A DNA stretch of 50,152 nt from the NCBI GenBank assembly GCA_963722445.1, contig CAVRMZ010000065.1:1-50152 (forward strand), written 5' to 3'. This DNA is from an uncultured Bacilli bacterium. Its GTDB lineage: Bacteria > Bacillota_I > Bacilli_A > RFN20 > CAG-826. Shown here in pieces: positions 4,155 through 10,899 of the stretch (its first letter is position 1; the number at the start of each line of letters is the position of its first letter). A program made the translations under genes and the position numbers. The notes beneath the pieces were generated by a model. It saw only the letters and a list, made by a program, of their open reading frames with translations, made no database searches and was not told where the DNA came from.

Positions 4155-5708
4155 ATGTGCAAAATTAAAAAAATCCGACAATTCCTTCTCCTCATCTCTG
4201 TTATTTTTTTGTCAAGTTGTACGATTTATGATTTGAATGATTCCAGGGAGACTTCGACAAGCGAAACGCCATCCGACGAGAGCCTTACGCCTCGTTCTTA
4301 TGGCGAGACTTATGGGGCCCATTATCTGAAAGCGACCGGAACCCAGAAAATACTAGTCATCCCGGTCACCATTAACGGCTATGAGGATAATGCCACCCCT
4401 TCCGTTCTTTCAGACATTCAAAAGACCTTTTCCGGAAACGCCGGCGATACAGGCTGGCAATCGTTGAAATCCTTCTATTCGACTTCTTCTTTCGGAAAAC
4501 TGTCCTTGAATATCACCATCGCCAGTTCTTGGTACGCCTGTGGTTTCACCGCGGCTCAGATCACGGCCAAAAATTTGAGTAGTAACACCGCAGAAGGTGT
4601 CACATTTGTCCTAGATAACGCCATCGCTTGGTACAAGCGTACCTATAACACCAATTGCCGGGATTTCGATCAGGATGGCGATGGTTACATCGATGGGGTT
4701 TGGCTTGTGTATAGCGCGCCAGACTACTCGCAAGTCGCTTCATTAGGCAGCACTTTCTGGGCGTTTACGACTTGGGATGGCAACAACGCAAGTGTTTCCT
4801 CCCCCACCGCCAACAGTTTTTGCTGGGCCTCCTATGATTTCATGTACGAAGGCTATGGGACTTCGAAAGTAGATGCCCATACGTTCATTCACGAAACCGG
4901 CCACATGATGGGACTTGAGGATTACTATTCCACGAACAAAAAAGAATTTTCCGCTCCGATGGGATGCCTCGATATGATGGACTATAACATCTTAGATCAT
5001 GACGCTTACAGCAAATTTGCCTTTGGATGGGTCACCCCTTATAAAATTAATGCCGCGGGCACATTAACGCTTCGCCCCTCCGAATCCTCCGGAGACTGCG
5101 CCATCATTCCGACAAGCGGTGGCTTTAACGGAAGCGCCTTCGATGAGTACATGATGATAGAGTACTACACTCCGACTGGGCTCAACGAAAGCGACTCTCA
5201 ATCGAGATATGAAGGAAAATATCCTTTGGGTTTCACCGATAGCGGCGTCCGTGTTTACCATGTTGATTCTCGTCTCTGCGTCATTACCGAGACCACCAGC
5301 GGCGGGACCGACAGTTATTCTTACGGGCCCTATACCGATTCAATCGTTTCGGAATCCACCTACACTACCGCCAAAGGAACAATTCTGGCCAATTCCAATA
5401 CTTATGGCGACGATTATATGAATACAATCAAATCGCCTTCTCTTATCCAAGAGATGGATTGCACCGACAAGCGAAACTTTGCGAAAGTAAGCGACTCAAC
5501 CAATGCAGCAACTTTCAATAAAACGGATTATATCGCGGATAATGGAACGCTTTTCGGGAATGGAACCTCTTTCTCTTTGTCCTCTTATAAAGATTCGTTC
5601 CTCTATGGTTCCTCTGGCCGCATGAACGACGGAACCACGCTTCCTTTCAAAGTCTCGTTCTCTAACGAAAGCTCCTCAGGCGTCACTCTGACGGTTGAGA
5701 GTGCTTAA
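4155..5708 (+). CDS. M6-family (immune inhibitor A-like) metalloprotease, lipoprotein
   Basis: Lipobox LSSC; zinc motif HETGHMMGLEDYY; DQDGDGYIDG and DMMDYN motifs typical of the M6 domain. Confidence 0.88.
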   Translation: MCKIKKIRQFLLLISVIFLSSCTIYDLNDSRETSTSETPSDESLTPRSYGETYGAHYLKATGTQKILVIPVTINGYEDNATPSVLSDIQKTFSGNAGDTGWQSLKSFYSTSSFGKLSLNITIASSWYACGFTAAQITAKNLSSNTAEGVTFVLDNAIAWYKRTYNTNCRDFDQDGDGYIDGVWLVYSAPDYSQVASLGSTFWAFTTWDGNNASVSSPTANSFCWASYDFMYEGYGTSKVDAHTFIHETGHMMGLEDYYSTNKKEFSAPMGCLDMMDYNILDHDAYSKFAFGWVTPYKINAAGTLTLRPSESSGDCAIIPTSGGFNGSAFDEYMMIEYYTPTGLNESDSQSRYEGKYPLGFTDSGVRVYHVDSRLCVITETTSGGTDSYSYGPYTDSIVSESTYTTAKGTILANSNTYGDDYMNTIKSPSLIQEMDCTDKRNFAKVSDSTNAATFNKTDYIADNGTLFGNGTSFSLSSYKDSFLYGSSGRMNDGTTLPFKVSFSNESSSGVTLTVESA

Positions 5709-5783
5709 CATTGCGTTTTCGCCTTCTTGAAGAAGAGGTTTCTTTCGCGTAAGATAAAGACGTTTCACAAAGGACCAACTAAG

Positions 5784-6260
5784 ATGAAAAAGACTTCCAG
5801 TTTGCCAGGTTTGCTTGGATTATTAGCGCTTTTATTCACCGCCAGTGCCTTACTTTTTCCGCTAGGAACTGGTCTTACTCTTGTCATGCCCAACGGCTCC
5901 ACCGAGGCTTTTGCGGGCTATGATTTCGTCTTTGCCAACAACGCCGCTCAAATCATTAGCAGCCCTTCGATGATTGCGTTCTTCGTTCTTATCCTCGTCG
6001 CCGTTGTTTTCCAGCTTCTCGCCACTGCTTTTGGCTGGTATGGCGGGAAGTTCACCGCTTTCCTTCATATCGTAGCGGGCTTATGCTTGCTCACTTGTGC
6101 CGCTCTTATCTTCTTATCCCCGATCATCATTGGATCCTGGGTTACCGGTGACACCGTGACGCTAGGCTATGGTTTCATCGTGGCGGGCGCTTCCGCCGCC
6201 GCTTCGGCTCTCGTGAGCCTTATCATCGGCGTGCGTGGCTTTGCTATCAAAGCAAGCTAA
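5784..6260 (+). CDS. Hypothetical four-TM membrane protein
   Basis: Four hydrophobic segments. The ATG at 5784 follows AAAGGA; the ORF track starts at 5727. Confidence 0.7.
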   Translation: MKKTSSLPGLLGLLALLFTASALLFPLGTGLTLVMPNGSTEAFAGYDFVFANNAAQIISSPSMIAFFVLILVAVVFQLLATAFGWYGGKFTAFLHIVAGLCLLTCAALIFLSPIIIGSWVTGDTVTLGYGFIVAGASAAASALVSLIIGVRGFAIKAS

Positions 6261-6280
6261 GCAAAGACATTTTAACTTGC

Positions 6281-6309
6281 AAGTCTCTTCTAAAAGGAGG
6301 GACTTTTTT
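6281..6309 (+). terminator. Intrinsic terminator
   Basis: AAGTCTCTTC-loop-GGAGGGACTT followed by a T run. Confidence 0.7.
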
Positions 6310-6360
6310 ATTTCGTTTGGCCATGGAATCGAGTCAAATAGACTACTTCGAAAATAATCA

Positions 6361-6389
6361 TTGACGCTTTTTTGGCCTGTGCTTAAATA
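6361..6389 (+). promoter_or_regulatory. Sigma70-like promoter for the ncRNA candidate
   Basis: TTGACG, a 17-nt spacer, then the AT-rich -10 region TAAATA(AT). Confidence 0.55.
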
Positions 6390-6395
6390 ATAATT

Positions 6396-6628
6396 GCTTA
6401 GCGGGGAAACCTGCTAGGTTGCCCAAGCGATCGATCGTCGCATCAGAAGGGCCCCGCACTCCGTCCGTCGGGAAAGTAGTTGGAGGCGTCTATTCTAGGG
6501 GGTTCGCCCTGCTAGGAAAGGTGAGGGCTGTTGGTAGTCCCTATAGACCATCGGGACTGTGACCTCGTTCGGAAGGCGTCGTAAGCCTGACGAACGGAAT
6601 AGCTGTAAGCTCCACAAGGAGCTTTTTT
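6396..6628 (+). ncRNA. Unidentified, highly structured ncRNA of about 230 nt
   Basis: GC-rich island with no credible ORF. At least seven helices can be paired by eye, including GAAA and UUCG tetraloops and a three-way junction. It is bracketed by its own promoter and terminator. Confidence 0.7.
6607..6628 (+). terminator. Intrinsic terminator ending the ncRNA candidate
   Basis: AAGCTCC-ACAA-GGAGCTT followed by TTTT. Confidence 0.8.
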
Positions 6629-6827
6629 CTTGCCTTGTTTCTAGCAAGTTAGACTAAAGAGTCGAAAGTATTTTTCCGTTTGGCAAATCTAAGTTTCGTA
6701 GTTATTTTTCGTAGGGAAATTTCATTTTTTGCCGATATTGGCGAATAACCTTCGAAAAATAAAGAGTAAATATTTTTTAGTGTAAGGGCTTCCATTATAT
6801 GTTTTTCGTTCTTTAAGAAAACAAATA

Positions 6828-6855
6828 TTGACATGTTTTGGCTCCACCATAAAAT
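6828..6855 (+). promoter_or_regulatory. Sigma70 promoter of the opp operon
   Basis: TTGACA-N16-TAAAAT, about 65 nt upstream of oppB. Confidence 0.65.
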
Positions 6856-6919
6856 CCCGTTTATCGAAGGGAAACTCCTCAGAAGCACCCTTTGGTAGAA
6901 CAAAGAACAGGCATTTGTT

Positions 6920-7852
6920 ATGAACGGAAAGACTCTGATGTACATTTTAAAGCGCATTGGGATGGCGGTCCTGACTATTTTTGTTGTGGTCACAGTAACT
7001 TTCTGGTTTATGCAACTCATCCCTGGCGGTCCTTTTACGTCAGAGAAATCGGTGTCTGTGACGACGCTGACAGCGCTTAAAGCCAAGTATGGATTGGATA
7101 AGCCTATTTTCGTTCAGTATTTGATTTTTCTTTGGCGGTCTTTCACCTTTGATTTCGGTCTTTCGATGAAGCTGACAGGCATGAATGTCAACGACATTAT
7201 TTCTTCTGGAATGAAGTACAGTTTTCCGGTTGGTTTGATTGCCACGGTCATTTCTTTGATTTTCGGGACGGTTTTTGGTTCCGTTGCTGCCGTCAAGCGG
7301 GGAACATGGGTCGATCGCATCATCATGATCTTTTCTTCGGCTTCCGTGGCTTTCCCAAGTTTTGTCATCGCCACTTTTCTCCTTTACTTTTTCGCTCTTA
7401 AATTAGGTTGGTTCCCAACCGACTACGTCAATGGTGGGAATGCCGCCTTTATCCTTCCGATTATCACGTTGGCTTTGTATCCTTCGGCTTATATCACTCG
7501 GCTGTCTCGAAGCGCCACCTTGGATAGTTTAGGAAGCGACTACATTATTACCGCCCGAGCCAAAGGAGCCTCGAAAACACGCGTCCTTTTCGGCCATGTC
7601 ATGAAAAACTCCTTAGCCCCAACCATTACTTATGCGGGACCGATGTTCGCCAGCATCATCACCGGCTCCCTTGTCGTTGAGCAGATTTATCAGGTTCCAG
7701 GTATTGGGAGTGCTTTTATTAGTTCTATTTTGGGCCGCGATTATTCCTTAATAATGGGTACCACCGTTGTTTTGACGGACCTTATCGTTCTTATGACGTT
7801 GTTGAGTGATCTTTTCTATAAAATTGTGAACCCACGGGTGGAACTGGAGTAA
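6920..7852 (+). CDS. oppB: Oligopeptide ABC transporter permease OppB
   Basis: PGGPF, YGLDKP and FDFGLS motifs; EAA-like loop DYIITARAKG; VEQIYQVPGIG. Confidence 0.93.
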   Translation: MNGKTLMYILKRIGMAVLTIFVVVTVTFWFMQLIPGGPFTSEKSVSVTTLTALKAKYGLDKPIFVQYLIFLWRSFTFDFGLSMKLTGMNVNDIISSGMKYSFPVGLIATVISLIFGTVFGSVAAVKRGTWVDRIIMIFSSASVAFPSFVIATFLLYFFALKLGWFPTDYVNGGNAAFILPIITLALYPSAYITRLSRSATLDSLGSDYIITARAKGASKTRVLFGHVMKNSLAPTITYAGPMFASIITGSLVVEQIYQVPGIGSAFISSILGRDYSLIMGTTVVLTDLIVLMTLLSDLFYKIVNPRVELE

Positions 7853-7855
7853 CTT

Positions 7856-8953
7856 ATGAAACTTGGTGAAAAATTTCCATTTCCAATAAGTCTTCAGGTC
7901 GATTACGATCGCCCGAATGTTTATCATTTGAACGATTATGGCAAAGAAACCAAAGAAGCTTCCAAGGACGAGAAGGCGGCCCAGCAGAAGGTACGACCTT
8001 CCACTTCGTTCTTCAAGGACTCCGTCAAACGTTTTGCCAAAAACCCCGTAGCGATGACTTGCTTCGTGATTATGGTTCTTCTCATTCTCACCGTGATTAT
8101 CATGACTTTTGTCGACCCTTATAAATACGATCATCAATTGTCTCTTGATACTTACGATTCTTCCTACAATTATTTAGGTCCCTTTCAATACAGCGACACG
8201 GAGAAGGCTTTAATCGCTCAGGGACAATATGTATTCCCTCATATTTTTGGAACTGACAGTTCAGGGCGTGATTATTTTGCGAGGGTTCTGTGCGGCACCA
8301 GCGTTTCTCTTTCCGTTGGTTTTTTCGCCGCTTTGATTGTTCTCGTCATCGGTTCCATTTATGGTTCTATTTCGGGTTATTTTGGCGGAAAGATTGATCT
8401 TTTCATGATGAGAATCGTCGATGTCATCTATTCGCTTCCTGATATTGTTTTAATTATTCTTATTTCGGTAGTCCTCAAAAAGATCCTGCCTTCGACTGAT
8501 GGGGGCATTATTTCTAAGCTTGGTCCTGGGATGATCTCGATTTTCATTGTTTTTGCCTTGCTCTATTGGGTTGGCATGGCTCGTTTAGTAAGAGGCCAAG
8601 TTCTTTCTTTGAAAGAGCAGGAGTACGTTTTGGCTTCTCGTTCCATTGGGGCAAGCCCATGGTTTGTCATCAAAAAACATCTTTTGCCTAACAGCATGTC
8701 GGTCATCATCATCTCAGCGGGTCTTGAAATTCCAAGCGCTATTTTTACCGAATCATTCCTTTCGTTCTTGGGTTTAGGCGTTGATGCCCCTATGGCCTCT
8801 TTGGGAAGCTTGGCCAGCGCTGGTGAGAACGGGATGAAGGTTTATCCATACTTGCTTTTCATTCCCGCCTTCACGATTTGCTTCATTGTGCTTTGCCTTA
8901 ATCTCATTGGCGATGGTTTGCGCGACGCTTTTGACCCAAAGCTCCAGAGGTAA
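7856..8953 (+). CDS. oppC: Oligopeptide ABC transporter permease OppC
   Basis: HIFGTDSSGRD, EYVLASRSIGA, ESFLSFLGLG and GDGLRDAFDPK motifs. Confidence 0.93.
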   Translation: MKLGEKFPFPISLQVDYDRPNVYHLNDYGKETKEASKDEKAAQQKVRPSTSFFKDSVKRFAKNPVAMTCFVIMVLLILTVIIMTFVDPYKYDHQLSLDTYDSSYNYLGPFQYSDTEKALIAQGQYVFPHIFGTDSSGRDYFARVLCGTSVSLSVGFFAALIVLVIGSIYGSISGYFGGKIDLFMMRIVDVIYSLPDIVLIILISVVLKKILPSTDGGIISKLGPGMISIFIVFALLYWVGMARLVRGQVLSLKEQEYVLASRSIGASPWFVIKKHLLPNSMSVIIISAGLEIPSAIFTESFLSFLGLGVDAPMASLGSLASAGENGMKVYPYLLFIPAFTICFIVLCLNLIGDGLRDAFDPKLQR

Positions 8954-8958
8954 CGCAT

Positions 8959-10899
8959 ATGGCAGAACAACAGCATTTATTAGTCGTTACTAATCTTAGG
9001 ACCTCGTTTAGGGTTCCGGCGGGCGAAGTTCGTTCCGTTGCTGGCATTTCCTTTTCGGTCGACAAAGGCAAGATCCTTGGCATCGTGGGGGAATCTGGTT
9101 CTGGCAAATCTGTGACCGCTTCCTCCATTATGCAGATTCTAGTCGCTTCCGGAAAAATCAAGGAAGGTTCCTCCGTCGTCTTTGAGGGAGAAGAACTGGT
9201 CGGAATGAAGGAACGGGAGCTTCGCAAAATCCGGGGCGATAAGATCGCGATGATTTTCCAGGATCCAATGACTGCCCTTAACCCCGTTTACACCATCGGT
9301 CATCAAATGGAAGAGGCTATGCTCCTTCACAAAAAGAGTCGAGTCGATGCTTTGATTGAGCCTCAAAAACGGCAGCTTCGAGACGATGAGACCGCTTTAA
9401 CGCGCTTATTGGCGGCTCGCAAAACTCTCAAGGGCGCAGACTCAGCTTTTGATGAAAAAGCCAAGGACTCTTTTAAATCTGAGATAGATTTGAGAGCCAA
9501 AATCGCTCAGGACAAGGTAGACCTCAAGGTTGGGAAAATAGAAGCCAAAGGCCAGGCCGAATATGAGAGAACGGTCGCTCAAGACAAATACCATTACGAG
9601 TTTAAAAAGCTTTCGTTTGCCTTCATGAACGCCTTAAGAGGCAGAGCTGTTGAAAAACGTCAAGAGGCTTCTCGGTACGCCAACGAAAAGCAAGCCGCCT
9701 TGCGTCTTGAATCCAAGCACGTCAAAGAGAAAGCGGCTTTGATTTGCGCTGATTCGAAGCGTCTCCATGTTCAAGAATGGGCCGAAGCCATCCATCCTCT
9801 TAAAGCCGAAATCGCTTTAAAAGGCACTCCTTCTATCCGCCGCCAAGTTCTTAAAGAACAAATCGTTGCTCTCGACAAAAAATATTCCCTTATTGTCGAA
9901 GCCGACCAATCGGCTTACAAGAAAACGATGAAGGAAGCGGGCGTTATCTATGCCAAAGCCCTTAACGATCTCAAGGCTGAGCATAAAACCCGTCTTAAAC
10001 AAATGAGAATTCACCGAAAAATCGCGATAAAAAATGCCTTTTTTGACCTTAAAGACAGTTTTGAAACTTATCGTGCTTCTTTTAGGGTAACGAAATATAG
10101 CGCCAAAAAACGAGCGATTGATATGTTGACGTTGGTTGGTGTTAACGAGCCGGAAAAGCGAATGAAACAATATCCGTTTGAATTCTCGGGCGGCATGCTC
10201 CAAAGAGTCATGATTGCCATGGCCTTACTTTGCAATCCCGACCTTCTCATCGCGGACGAGCCGACCACCGCTTTGGATGTTACGATCCAAGCGCAAATTC
10301 TTGAACTCATCAAGGACATTCAGAAGAAACTTGGGATGGGCGTTATCATCATTACTCATGATTTGGGCGTCGTTGCTCAAATTTGTGATGACGTTGAGGT
10401 CATGTATGCCGGACGTATTGTCGAGAGAGGAACCGTCGATGAAATTTTCTACAATCCAAAACATGAATACACCAAAGGTCTTATCGCTTCGATTCCAGGT
10501 CAGAATGCTGTCAAAGGTCGGAAACTTCATCCCATCGAAGGAAACCCGGTTGATGTCTTTGCTCTTCCCAATGGTTGTTCTTTCGGCCCCCGTTGTGAGA
10601 GATGCATGAAAATCTGTCTTGAGCGGTATCCTTTCGAACGAAGGATTTCTTCTGATCATTATTCCTCTTGTTTCTATTCTGCGTTCGAAGACGTGAAGGC
10701 CGGAAAACTGAGCAAAGAGGATTTCATAACCTATATCAATCAGGGCTTCGTAATTGATTCCAAAAACGTTCATCAAATCAAAGAAAGCCATTTAAGGCAC
10801 TTGATTAAGTGGGCTGAACTGAAACTCAGTTTTCAAAAAACCCAGCTCGCCCCACAAGCGGAATCCAAAGATAAGAAGAACGGAAAGGAGGCCAAGTGA
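8959..10899 (+). CDS. oppD: Oligopeptide ABC ATPase OppD with an internal helical insertion of about 255 aa
   Basis: Walker A GESGSGKS, FQDPMTALNP, signature FSGGMLQR, Walker B LLIADEPTT, and C-terminal Cys-rich GCSFGPRC..C. Confidence 0.92.
   Translation: MAEQQHLLVVTNLRTSFRVPAGEVRSVAGISFSVDKGKILGIVGESGSGKSVTASSIMQILVASGKIKEGSSVVFEGEELVGMKERELRKIRGDKIAMIFQDPMTALNPVYTIGHQMEEAMLLHKKSRVDALIEPQKRQLRDDETALTRLLAARKTLKGADSAFDEKAKDSFKSEIDLRAKIAQDKVDLKVGKIEAKGQAEYERTVAQDKYHYEFKKLSFAFMNALRGRAVEKRQEASRYANEKQAALRLESKHVKEKAALICADSKRLHVQEWAEAIHPLKAEIALKGTPSIRRQVLKEQIVALDKKYSLIVEADQSAYKKTMKEAGVIYAKALNDLKAEHKTRLKQMRIHRKIAIKNAFFDLKDSFETYRASFRVTKYSAKKRAIDMLTLVGVNEPEKRMKQYPFEFSGGMLQRVMIAMALLCNPDLLIADEPTTALDVTIQAQILELIKDIQKKLGMGVIIITHDLGVVAQICDDVEVMYAGRIVERGTVDEIFYNPKHEYTKGLIASIPGQNAVKGRKLHPIEGNPVDVFALPNGCSFGPRCERCMKICLERYPFERRISSDHYSSCFYSAFEDVKAGKLSKEDFITYINQGFVIDSKNVHQIKESHLRHLIKWAELKLSFQKTQLAPQAESKDKKNGKEAK

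Follow-up and report, generated by a model that had tools for sequence, protein, structure and literature searches.

Complex-folded bacterial RNAs of unknown function, such as OLE, ROOL, GOLLD and raiA, are rare, and they have been a repeated source of new biology and new RNA architecture. 6S RNA folds into one long, irregular hairpin whose central bubble imitates open promoter DNA, and it binds the sigma-70 holoenzyme and templates product RNA. In the glycine riboswitch, the tandem aptamers are homologous modules that lie on the same transcript and touch, and CsrB-type decoys work by repeating a binding module. The raiA RNA, which is found in >2700 species, features a closing P1 helix that joins both ends, P3a/P3b, P4 and the pseudoknots PK1 and PK2, and it binds KhpA/KhpB (PMC12968392). 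In OLE (a dimer), ROOL (an octamer) and GOLLD (a 14-mer), the subunits are joined through kissing loops and A-minor contacts (PMC12286853). RNAs of <200 nucleotides (nt) also form dimers, trimers and cages (bioRxiv 10.64898/2026.07.01.735769). Here we describe an RNA element at positions 6361-6628 of a 50,152-nt stretch of DNA (the window) from an uncultured Bacilli bacterium (assembly GCA_963722445.1, contig CAVRMZ010000065.1). The element is bounded by the terminator of a small membrane-protein gene and by the oppBCDFA operon. Judged by its sequence signals, the segment 6395-6628 (+) is a stand-alone RNA gene of ~235 nt with its own promoter and terminator, and its homologs share a covarying fold that also occurs in tandem within a larger RNA of a sister genus.

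The first-pass annotation of the window, which was made from the sequence alone, had recognized no family in this element and called for an Rfam scan, which agreed. None of the 4227 models of Rfam 15 matched anywhere in the window at gathering thresholds, and searches at E<=10 with lax filters of positions 6250-6950 and of the large form described below (L009 1400-2260) returned unrelated matches at E>1 only. We conclude that the RNA represents a family without a description in Rfam, new at the level of both sequence and structure. ARAGORN detected no transfer RNA or transfer-messenger RNA in the window, BLAST searches of plasmids and phages gave no match to the RNA, and a pattern scan of viral contigs yielded one chance match only. 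The annotation had also proposed a check for canonical housekeeping RNAs, and two of these were located elsewhere in carrier genomes. RNase P RNA type B (RF00011) scored 207-252 bits in the carriers G006, G016 and G055 and was also present in two non-carriers, while a match to the S-domain of signal recognition particle (SRP) RNA (RF01854) was found in 8/8 genomes, including C32:31683-31762 of the window's own genome. The SRP matches score under the cut-off for large SRP, as expected for short SRP RNAs. At the RNA locus itself, neither RNase P RNA type B nor SRP (RF01854, with small SRP covered by the general Rfam scan) gave a match. The check for 6S RNA was also run, and this RNA (RF00013) was undetected in carriers and non-carriers alike among 8 genomes (G000, G006, G009, G016, G054, G055, G072 and G387). 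These include a 99%-complete single-contig genome, and 6S may be missing or too divergent in this small-genome lineage.

Undetected 6S raises the possibility that the element is a very divergent 6S-type RNA or, more broadly, that it belongs to a described family (6S, raiA, ROOL, OLE or other) but has diverged too far for the Rfam models to recognize. However, neither the small nor the large form gave a match even when filters were lax and E<=10 was allowed, the fold contains neither an end-joining helix nor a rod with a central bubble, and 6S absence is uninformative by complementarity because non-carriers of the genus also lack 6S matches. We therefore give this explanation very little credence. 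Like 6S, an abundant stand-alone regulatory RNA of ~190 nt made from a strong promoter, the element resembles a stand-alone gene, but it is multi-domain and absent from most of its genus. The likeness to raiA is that of a stand-alone, multi-stem non-coding RNA of ~200 nt from the Bacillota with conserved junctions and variable peripheral stems (PMC12968392). In contrast to raiA, the present RNA is a string of six local domains and is known from about six species-level genomes rather than >2700 species. The hallmarks of raiA were also missing from it, with no end-joining helix, no pseudoknot supported by covariation and no Rfam match at E<=10.

To define the fold, we used homologs gathered by BLAST and a covariance model, R1 (211 positions, 64 pairs), in genomes of the same genus, as well as by exact-pattern scans that covered 185,579 species genomes and the JGI metagenome collection. 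The scan of species genomes recovered the same 5 Bacilli metagenome-assembled genomes (MAGs) and 5 chance matches that failed the model, and 13 of the 23 loci from metagenome contigs fit the covariance model convincingly. The final set contains 14 full-length sequences, of which 13 are distinct, and 10 represent a small form with a single module. The first-pass annotation had recommended a covariation check in relatives, and across the 13 distinct sequences the helices covary strongly. Standard pairs occupy 92.5% of cells, and shifting the 3' partners by 1-3 columns lowers this to 32-46%; 29/64 pairs change on both sides. None of 500 column shuffles reached any of five measures. Frequent G-U pairs fit the + strand only, and the predicted fold of the + strand is more stable than all of 200 shuffles (z = -2.84; the - strand gives z = -2.24). 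Two short open reading frames (ORFs) of 47 and 50 amino acids (aa) overlap the element, and we rejected a coding reading of them given indels of 1, 2 and 22 nt and the stem-wise compensation.

Based on this alignment, we conclude that the ~210-nt core is a self-contained fold, or module, that consists of six local helical domains, P1-P6 (Table 1). No helix of the consensus joins the 5' and 3' ends, and the segments between helices (GUCUA, GGAAAGG, GGGAAAGUA and CGGAAU) are nearly invariant. Helices P1-P4 and P6 had been paired by eye in the first-pass annotation at positions within 1-2 nt of the covarying consensus: 6397-6405/6410-6418 with a GAAA loop (P1), 6421-6424/6449-6452 enclosing 6427-6430/6438-6441 (P2/P2a), 6455-6462/6482-6488 (P3), 6495-6502/6507-6515 with a UUCG loop (P4) and 6565-6571/6591-6597 (P6). 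In contrast, the three-way junction drawn there for the 3' domain, with 6527-6532/6598-6603 as its closing helix and AGUCCC/GGGACU within, was not supported. Its positions are paired in 73.8% of cells, which equals the shuffled mean, 282/500 shuffles reach its pairing, the closing helix is at 55%, and its covariation among the 13 sequences is not above chance. We replaced this junction with P5/P5a/P5b, which is paired in 96.7% of cells with 5 compensatory pairs and a covariation score reached by 0/500 shuffles, and which places AGUCCC in a conserved loop. Because the alignment was fitted to the analysis' own model, these counts for the junction and for P5/P5a/P5b lean towards that model. The P5 loop takes inserts of 16-22 nt in the G016-type and G387-type sequences, and in one module of the large form (module C, below) the insert forms a clear extra hairpin. 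The segment GUCU (6488-6491) is complementary to AGAC (6545-6548) in the P5 loop, and both are invariant in 13/13 sequences. This pair is a possible pseudoknot candidate, for which invariance on both sides leaves no covariation signal; a scan of all column pairs found no further helix or pseudoknot with real compensatory change.

We also examined the signals that flank the fold. The element has a GC content of 58%, compared with 31-40% in the spacers on either side, and thus forms the local GC-rich island noted at first sight, within a host genome of 1.07 Mb and 49% GC overall. A terminator scan called the hairpin of the upstream gene at 6281-6305, where a terminator had been placed at 6281-6309, as well as the hairpin of the RNA's own terminator at 6607-6624, which had likewise been anticipated. 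All homologs end in a terminator hairpin whose sequence differs from lineage to lineage. The TTGACG promoter proposed for the RNA was not called by the promoter scan, but it proved to be the -35 element of a promoter kept in 10/10 small-form homologs, with the unusually well conserved motif AAAAAYAAT-N-ATTGACRNTTTT, ~10 nt, TG-N-TTWAAT. The spacing of this promoter would place the RNA start site at ~6394-6397, at the foot of P1. Together, the conserved promoter and the terminator favor the suggestion of an independent transcript of ~230 nt, and the gene is presumably transcribed as such.

The position of the RNA raises the question of whether it is a cis-acting leader, riboswitch or attenuator of opp, in which a ligand would set the balance between termination at 6607-6628 and read-through into oppB. 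Consistent with such a leader, the RNA lies 5' of oppB and in the same orientation in all small-form carriers, ends in a terminator and contains invariant junctions that are aptamer-like. However, a strong, conserved and separate opp promoter lies between the RNA terminator and oppB in every carrier, 60-65 nt 5' of the oppB ATG at the three loci measured; the promoter scan also called this promoter in the window, where it had been noted at 6828. We regard the RNA as a stand-alone gene and not an opp leader because opp has this conserved promoter of its own. Furthermore, the spacer from the RNA terminator to oppB varies from 193 to 1034 nt across carriers, and the differing terminators share no anti-terminator pairing that could be seen by eye, with no formal search run. 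A rumen MAG from a sister genus (G387) and a metagenome contig (L032) carry a divergent homolog between a cation-efflux gene and a cyclophilin gene, the latter apparently with its own extended -10 element, and no OppB ortholog was found in the assembled 86% of the G387 genome. An opp leader is excluded as a general explanation because this homolog sits between unrelated genes in a lineage without an OppB ortholog. The earlier statement that the element is not an opp riboswitch thus gains support from both lines of evidence. With a next gene that differs in class between the lineages (opp or cyclophilin), the riboswitch is largely refuted, and we consider a leader role very improbable.

The homolog in G387 and L032 is larger than the RNA in the window. 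Both copies have a promoter of the form TTGACA-N17-NAATAAT followed by ~690 nt of GC-rich, ORF-poor sequence with a T-run only at the terminator. They are 90% identical over ~690 nt, their hairpins carry compensatory changes, and the predicted fold has z = -3.65. The R1 model fits the large RNA twice at full length (E = 1e-10 to 1e-15). The match nearer the 3' end, module C, reaches 46.6-51.4 bits. Its counterpart at the 5' end, module A, reaches 37.4-38.6 bits and contains P1 with its GAAA cap, the clamp of P2, P3, the junction of P5, and P6. We conclude that the large RNA contains two modules in tandem. The segment between them is ~214 nt, which is the length of one module, and it probably represents a third module (module B). 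In this segment, a P1-like hairpin capped by a GNRA loop shows covariation when G387 and L032 are compared. The segment also has a P2 built to the same plan (GCCCC-GA-hairpin-GUUAAUA-GGGGC), additional hairpins, and GGUAAUCC where the other modules have GGUAGUCC. The P2a sub-motif recurs in modules A, B and C.

Repetition of homologous structured modules within one transcript is shared with the glycine riboswitch. In contrast to that cis-regulatory, ligand-binding and widespread element, the present RNA is a stand-alone gene that has its own terminator and precedes a gene with its own promoter. With OLE, ROOL and GOLLD it shares an elaborate fold, its own transcription signals, a carrier genome from the rumen and, for the ~690-nt form, a similar size range, but it matches none of their Rfam models. 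Its unit of ~210 nt is tandemly repeated in the large form, which is undescribed for OLE, ROOL and GOLLD, and it is unusual for the same fold to occur both singly and as tandem modules of one transcript. Tandem repeats in one transcript could be cut to unit length by a ribozyme, self-cleaving or other, with a core formed by the invariant junction nucleotides. The complex fold, the invariant unpaired nucleotides and the GUCU/AGAC candidate would suit such an activity; however, no Rfam ribozyme class matches, the locus is not set among the mobile elements, phages or repeats that typically accompany small self-cleavers, and no conserved cleavage-site signature was identified, so we consider a ribozyme highly improbable.

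Comparison of the P2a loops among the modules revealed a pattern that differs between the small and large forms. In 10/10 small forms, the P2a stem covaries but the loop keeps its core GAUC unchanged, and the surrounding 6-mer is palindromic, with CGAUCG in 9 sequences and UGAUCA in 1 (G006). In the large form, the corresponding 6-mers are CGACCG in module A and CGGUCG in module C, which are non-palindromic and are exact reverse complements of each other, such that the one substitution in each loop is compensated by the other. The module B loop is self-complementary in L032 (UGCGCA), and its counterpart in G387 (UGUGCA) self-pairs via two G-U wobbles. This shift from a palindrome to a complementary pair is unusual and is what a loop-loop contact would predict. 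The pattern suggests RNA-RNA contacts that are intermolecular for the single module and that join A to C in the fused RNA. Self-association of the RNA is nonetheless a tentative reading that we regard as doubtful. Were it correct, modules would touch through kissing of the P2a hairpin loops, and the GAAA tetraloop of P1, which is invariant, might assist. RNAs with one module would thereby pair up as homodimers or build larger assemblies, and the sister genus would have two, probably three, modules covalently joined in one transcript of ~690 nt. Evolution may even have recorded a quaternary interface, in which the CGAUCG loop of a homodimer was split into the complementary A/C pair upon fusion into a three-module transcript with a self-complementary module B loop; we treat this scenario as doubtful. 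If true, the RNA would parallel homo-oligomeric proteins whose subunits have become fused, and it would define a new class of self-assembling bacterial RNA that is made alongside peptide-uptake operons in gut Bacilli. Whereas the homo-oligomers of OLE, ROOL and GOLLD have been seen, oligomerization of the present RNA is proposed from its loop sequences. The natural manA and EGFOA motif RNAs, which are <200 nt, self-assemble via compact RNA-RNA interfaces (bioRxiv 10.64898/2026.07.01.735769); these belong to other families with no Rfam match to the present RNA, which is known here from its sequence. At ~210 nt, the unit lends itself to in-vitro transcription, native gels and cryo-EM.

Conserved loops and junctions could instead reflect contacts with protein. 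According to this explanation, the RNA would be monomeric and would serve, like 6S, CsrB, Y RNA or raiA with KhpA/KhpB, as a scaffold or decoy, with GGUAGUCC...AAGAC, GGGAAAGUA and GAUC as binding sites that the tandem modules multiply. The single-stranded segments are invariant while the stems covary, the promoter appears strong, raiA with KhpA/KhpB offers a precedent, the repetition of modules recalls CsrB-type decoys, and a lineage in which 6S is undetected may have a vacancy for an abundant regulatory RNA. However, when we compared the neighborhoods of the small-form clade with those of G387 and L032, no candidate partner gene that adjoins the RNA was conserved in both lineages, and protein binding alone leaves the complementary A/C loops and the single-module palindromes unexplained. 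We judge this explanation unlikely, and it is compatible with, rather than exclusive of, a self-associating RNA.

We next consider how the RNA relates to opp. Each carrier locus, over 5-14 kb, contains precisely two copies of a rare extended motif of ~24 nt, AAAAAYAAT-N-ATTGACAGTTTTT; one belongs to the RNA gene and the other to opp. A promoter weight matrix built from 19 instances of the motif was run over the 1.07-Mb genome of the window, where the RNA promoter ranked first (34.5 bits) and the opp promoter second (27.4 bits). The third match (20.4 bits; C55:16021 (+), outside the window) lies 87 nt 5' of a gene for an 837-aa SBP5 (SBP_bac_5) lipoprotein, which heads a second peptide-permease operon with OppB- and OppC-like permeases next. 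This distribution hints at a small peptide-uptake regulon common to the motif, and the RNA may be made together with the peptide-uptake genes in the small-form clade. The twin promoter at opp offers a handle on the timing of the RNA in Bacilli of the gut and rumen that are uncultured and have very small genomes.

Co-expression with opp would also be expected of a trans-acting small RNA that base-pairs with opp, with messenger RNAs of the M6-like proteases or with other targets. Such a role would suit a stand-alone gene that ends in a Rho-independent terminator and whose own promoter has its twin at opp, and in the small-form clade the RNA always lies between the M6-like paralogs and membrane protein on one side and oppBCDFA on the other. 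Yet six covarying helices and invariant junctions over 210 nt exceed the needs of seed pairing, conserved complementarity to the opp leader is <= ~5 nt by reading, with no formal target search made, and the large-form lineage has another gene context and no OppB ortholog. A base-pairing small RNA is accordingly quite unlikely.

The RNA is narrowly distributed. It was present in 5/78 genomes of the window's genus, in 4/401 genomes sampled across the order (2/70 genera) and in 4/401 genomes sampled across the family (2/48 genera). No close OppB ortholog was found in ten near-complete non-carrier genomes of the genus; because these non-carriers also lack the opp locus, we consider the whole locus specific to one subclade. 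The name of one carrier MAG, UBA4951, serves as a genus name for bacteria of the ape gut (PMC11774583).

Taken together, we favor a model in which the element is a stand-alone folded RNA of an undescribed family that acts in trans, with self-association as its likeliest mode of action, and is probably made with opp; we estimate a probability of roughly 45% for this explanation as a whole. According to this model, six local domains joined by invariant single-stranded segments would form a folded particle that acts in trans. The RNA would not serve as a leader of opp, a simple antisense RNA would be improbable, and in the small-form clade the RNA would probably be made together with the peptide-uptake machinery via the shared promoter motif. 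Action in trans, self-association, co-regulation and any cellular role are each put forward here from sequence comparison. Several points weigh against it. The kissing-loop interpretation is post hoc and draws on few independent lineages, with essentially one A/C compensatory event plus the palindromes. For G006, an intramolecular pair that closes a GAUC tetraloop accounts just as well for the change from C-G to U-A, and a loop of 4 nt would be a tight fit for kissing. Module B gave piecemeal, weak matches to R1 and is statistically unsupported as a module; a short model of P2 alone (R2) scored it at 9.7 bits (E ~6), in a comparison whose positive control, module C, itself failed at 11.4 bits (E ~2). 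The narrowness of the family and the lack of opp in G387 make the link to peptide uptake clade-specific at best, and duplication of a strong promoter, instead of a regulator site, could account for the shared motif.

Table 1. Predicted features of the RNA gene and the neighboring opp promoter, in window positions; paired strands are separated by a slash.
Feature	Position	Strand	Details
RNA promoter	6351-6389	+	Motif in 10/10 small-form homologs
RNA promoter, A-rich stretch 5' of -35	6351-6358	+	AAAATAAT
RNA promoter, -35	6361-6366	+	TTGACG; T-run 6368-6373
RNA promoter, extended -10	6380-6381 and 6383-6388 or 6384-6389	+	TG 6380-6381; TTAAAT 6383-6388 or TAAATA 6384-6389
P1	6396-6405/6410-6419	+	10-bp hairpin; invariant GAAA tetraloop 6406-6409; 6/10 pairs compensatory
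P2 clamp	6421-6424/6449-6452	+	Invariant GCCC/GGGC; encloses P2a
P2a	6427-6431/6437-6441	+	Loop CGAUC 6432-6436, with G6437 palindrome CGAUCG; stem covaries
Purine-rich strand 3' of P2a	6442-6448	+	
P3	6455-6463/6481-6488	+	One bulge; 94% of cells paired; 2 pairs compensatory; bears GGGAAAGUA
P3a, weak inner hairpin	6464-6466/6471-6473	+	74% of cells paired
J3/4	6489-6492	+	With G6488 forms invariant GUCUA
P4	6493-6502/6507-6517	+	UUCG loop; sequence and length vary by lineage; 6/10 pairs compensatory
P5	6519-6522/6562-6565	+	
P5a	6524-6525/6557-6558	+	
P5b	6528-6535/6547-6554	+	Closes conserved loop (GGU)AGUCCY...ARAGAC 6536-6546
P6 outer helix	6566-6571/6591-6596	+	5/6 pairs compensatory
P6 inner helix	6574-6577/6585-6588	+	Conserved loop GUNGNAAG; P6 domain 6566-6603
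3' tail GGAAU	After P6, within 6566-6603	+	Conserved
RNA intrinsic terminator	6607-6630	+	7-bp stem 6607-6624; T-run 6623-6628; terminator scan
opp promoter (context, outside the RNA)	6818-6855	+	-35 TTGACA 6828-6833; -10 TAAAAT 6850-6855; scan 11/12

In the small-form clade, the gene order around the RNA is M6-like metalloprotease paralogs, a membrane protein of 157-186 aa, the RNA and oppBCDFA. The window contains one ORF of 517 aa that resembles M6-family metalloproteases (4155-5708; TIGR03296 domain, E = 5e-23, under the curated cut-off), and 2-3 such paralogs, with 38-51% identity to the window protein, stand in tandem just 5' of the RNA in L015, L019, L026 and L037. Directly 5' of the RNA is the predicted membrane protein (5727-6260 in the window), which has no Pfam or NCBIfam match and is kept only in the small-form clade. 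In an alignment of four small-form loci, its orthologs in L002, L003 and L007 are 43-48% identical to the window protein.

Within the spacer between the RNA and opp, a second conserved block, AAAAATAAAKAGTGAATATTT...GAAAACGCTTMCAAA (6745-6800 in the window), lies ~60-100 nt 5' of the opp promoter. The block occurs at the same position in L020, L027, L037, L019, L033, L038 and L043, and thus in most carriers despite a spacer of varying length, and it may serve as a binding site for a regulator or represent some other small feature. Further downstream, the OppD-like ATPase (8959-10899) is unusually long at 646 aa and matches ABC_tran in two stretches, which suggests a large insertion inside the nucleotide-binding domain.

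Two additional observations concern the sister-genus genome G387. No match to type B RNase P RNA was found in this 86%-complete assembly, compared with clear matches in five genomes of the window's genus; the search covered type B only, and the difference probably reflects assembly incompleteness. In addition, the cation-efflux (CDF) gene that is divergent from the large RNA (L044, G387:C69, 8044-9301 (+)) appears split over two overlapping frames, with Cation_efflux at 8044-8772 and ZT_dimer at 8729-9301, and either a frameshift or an assembly error is possible.

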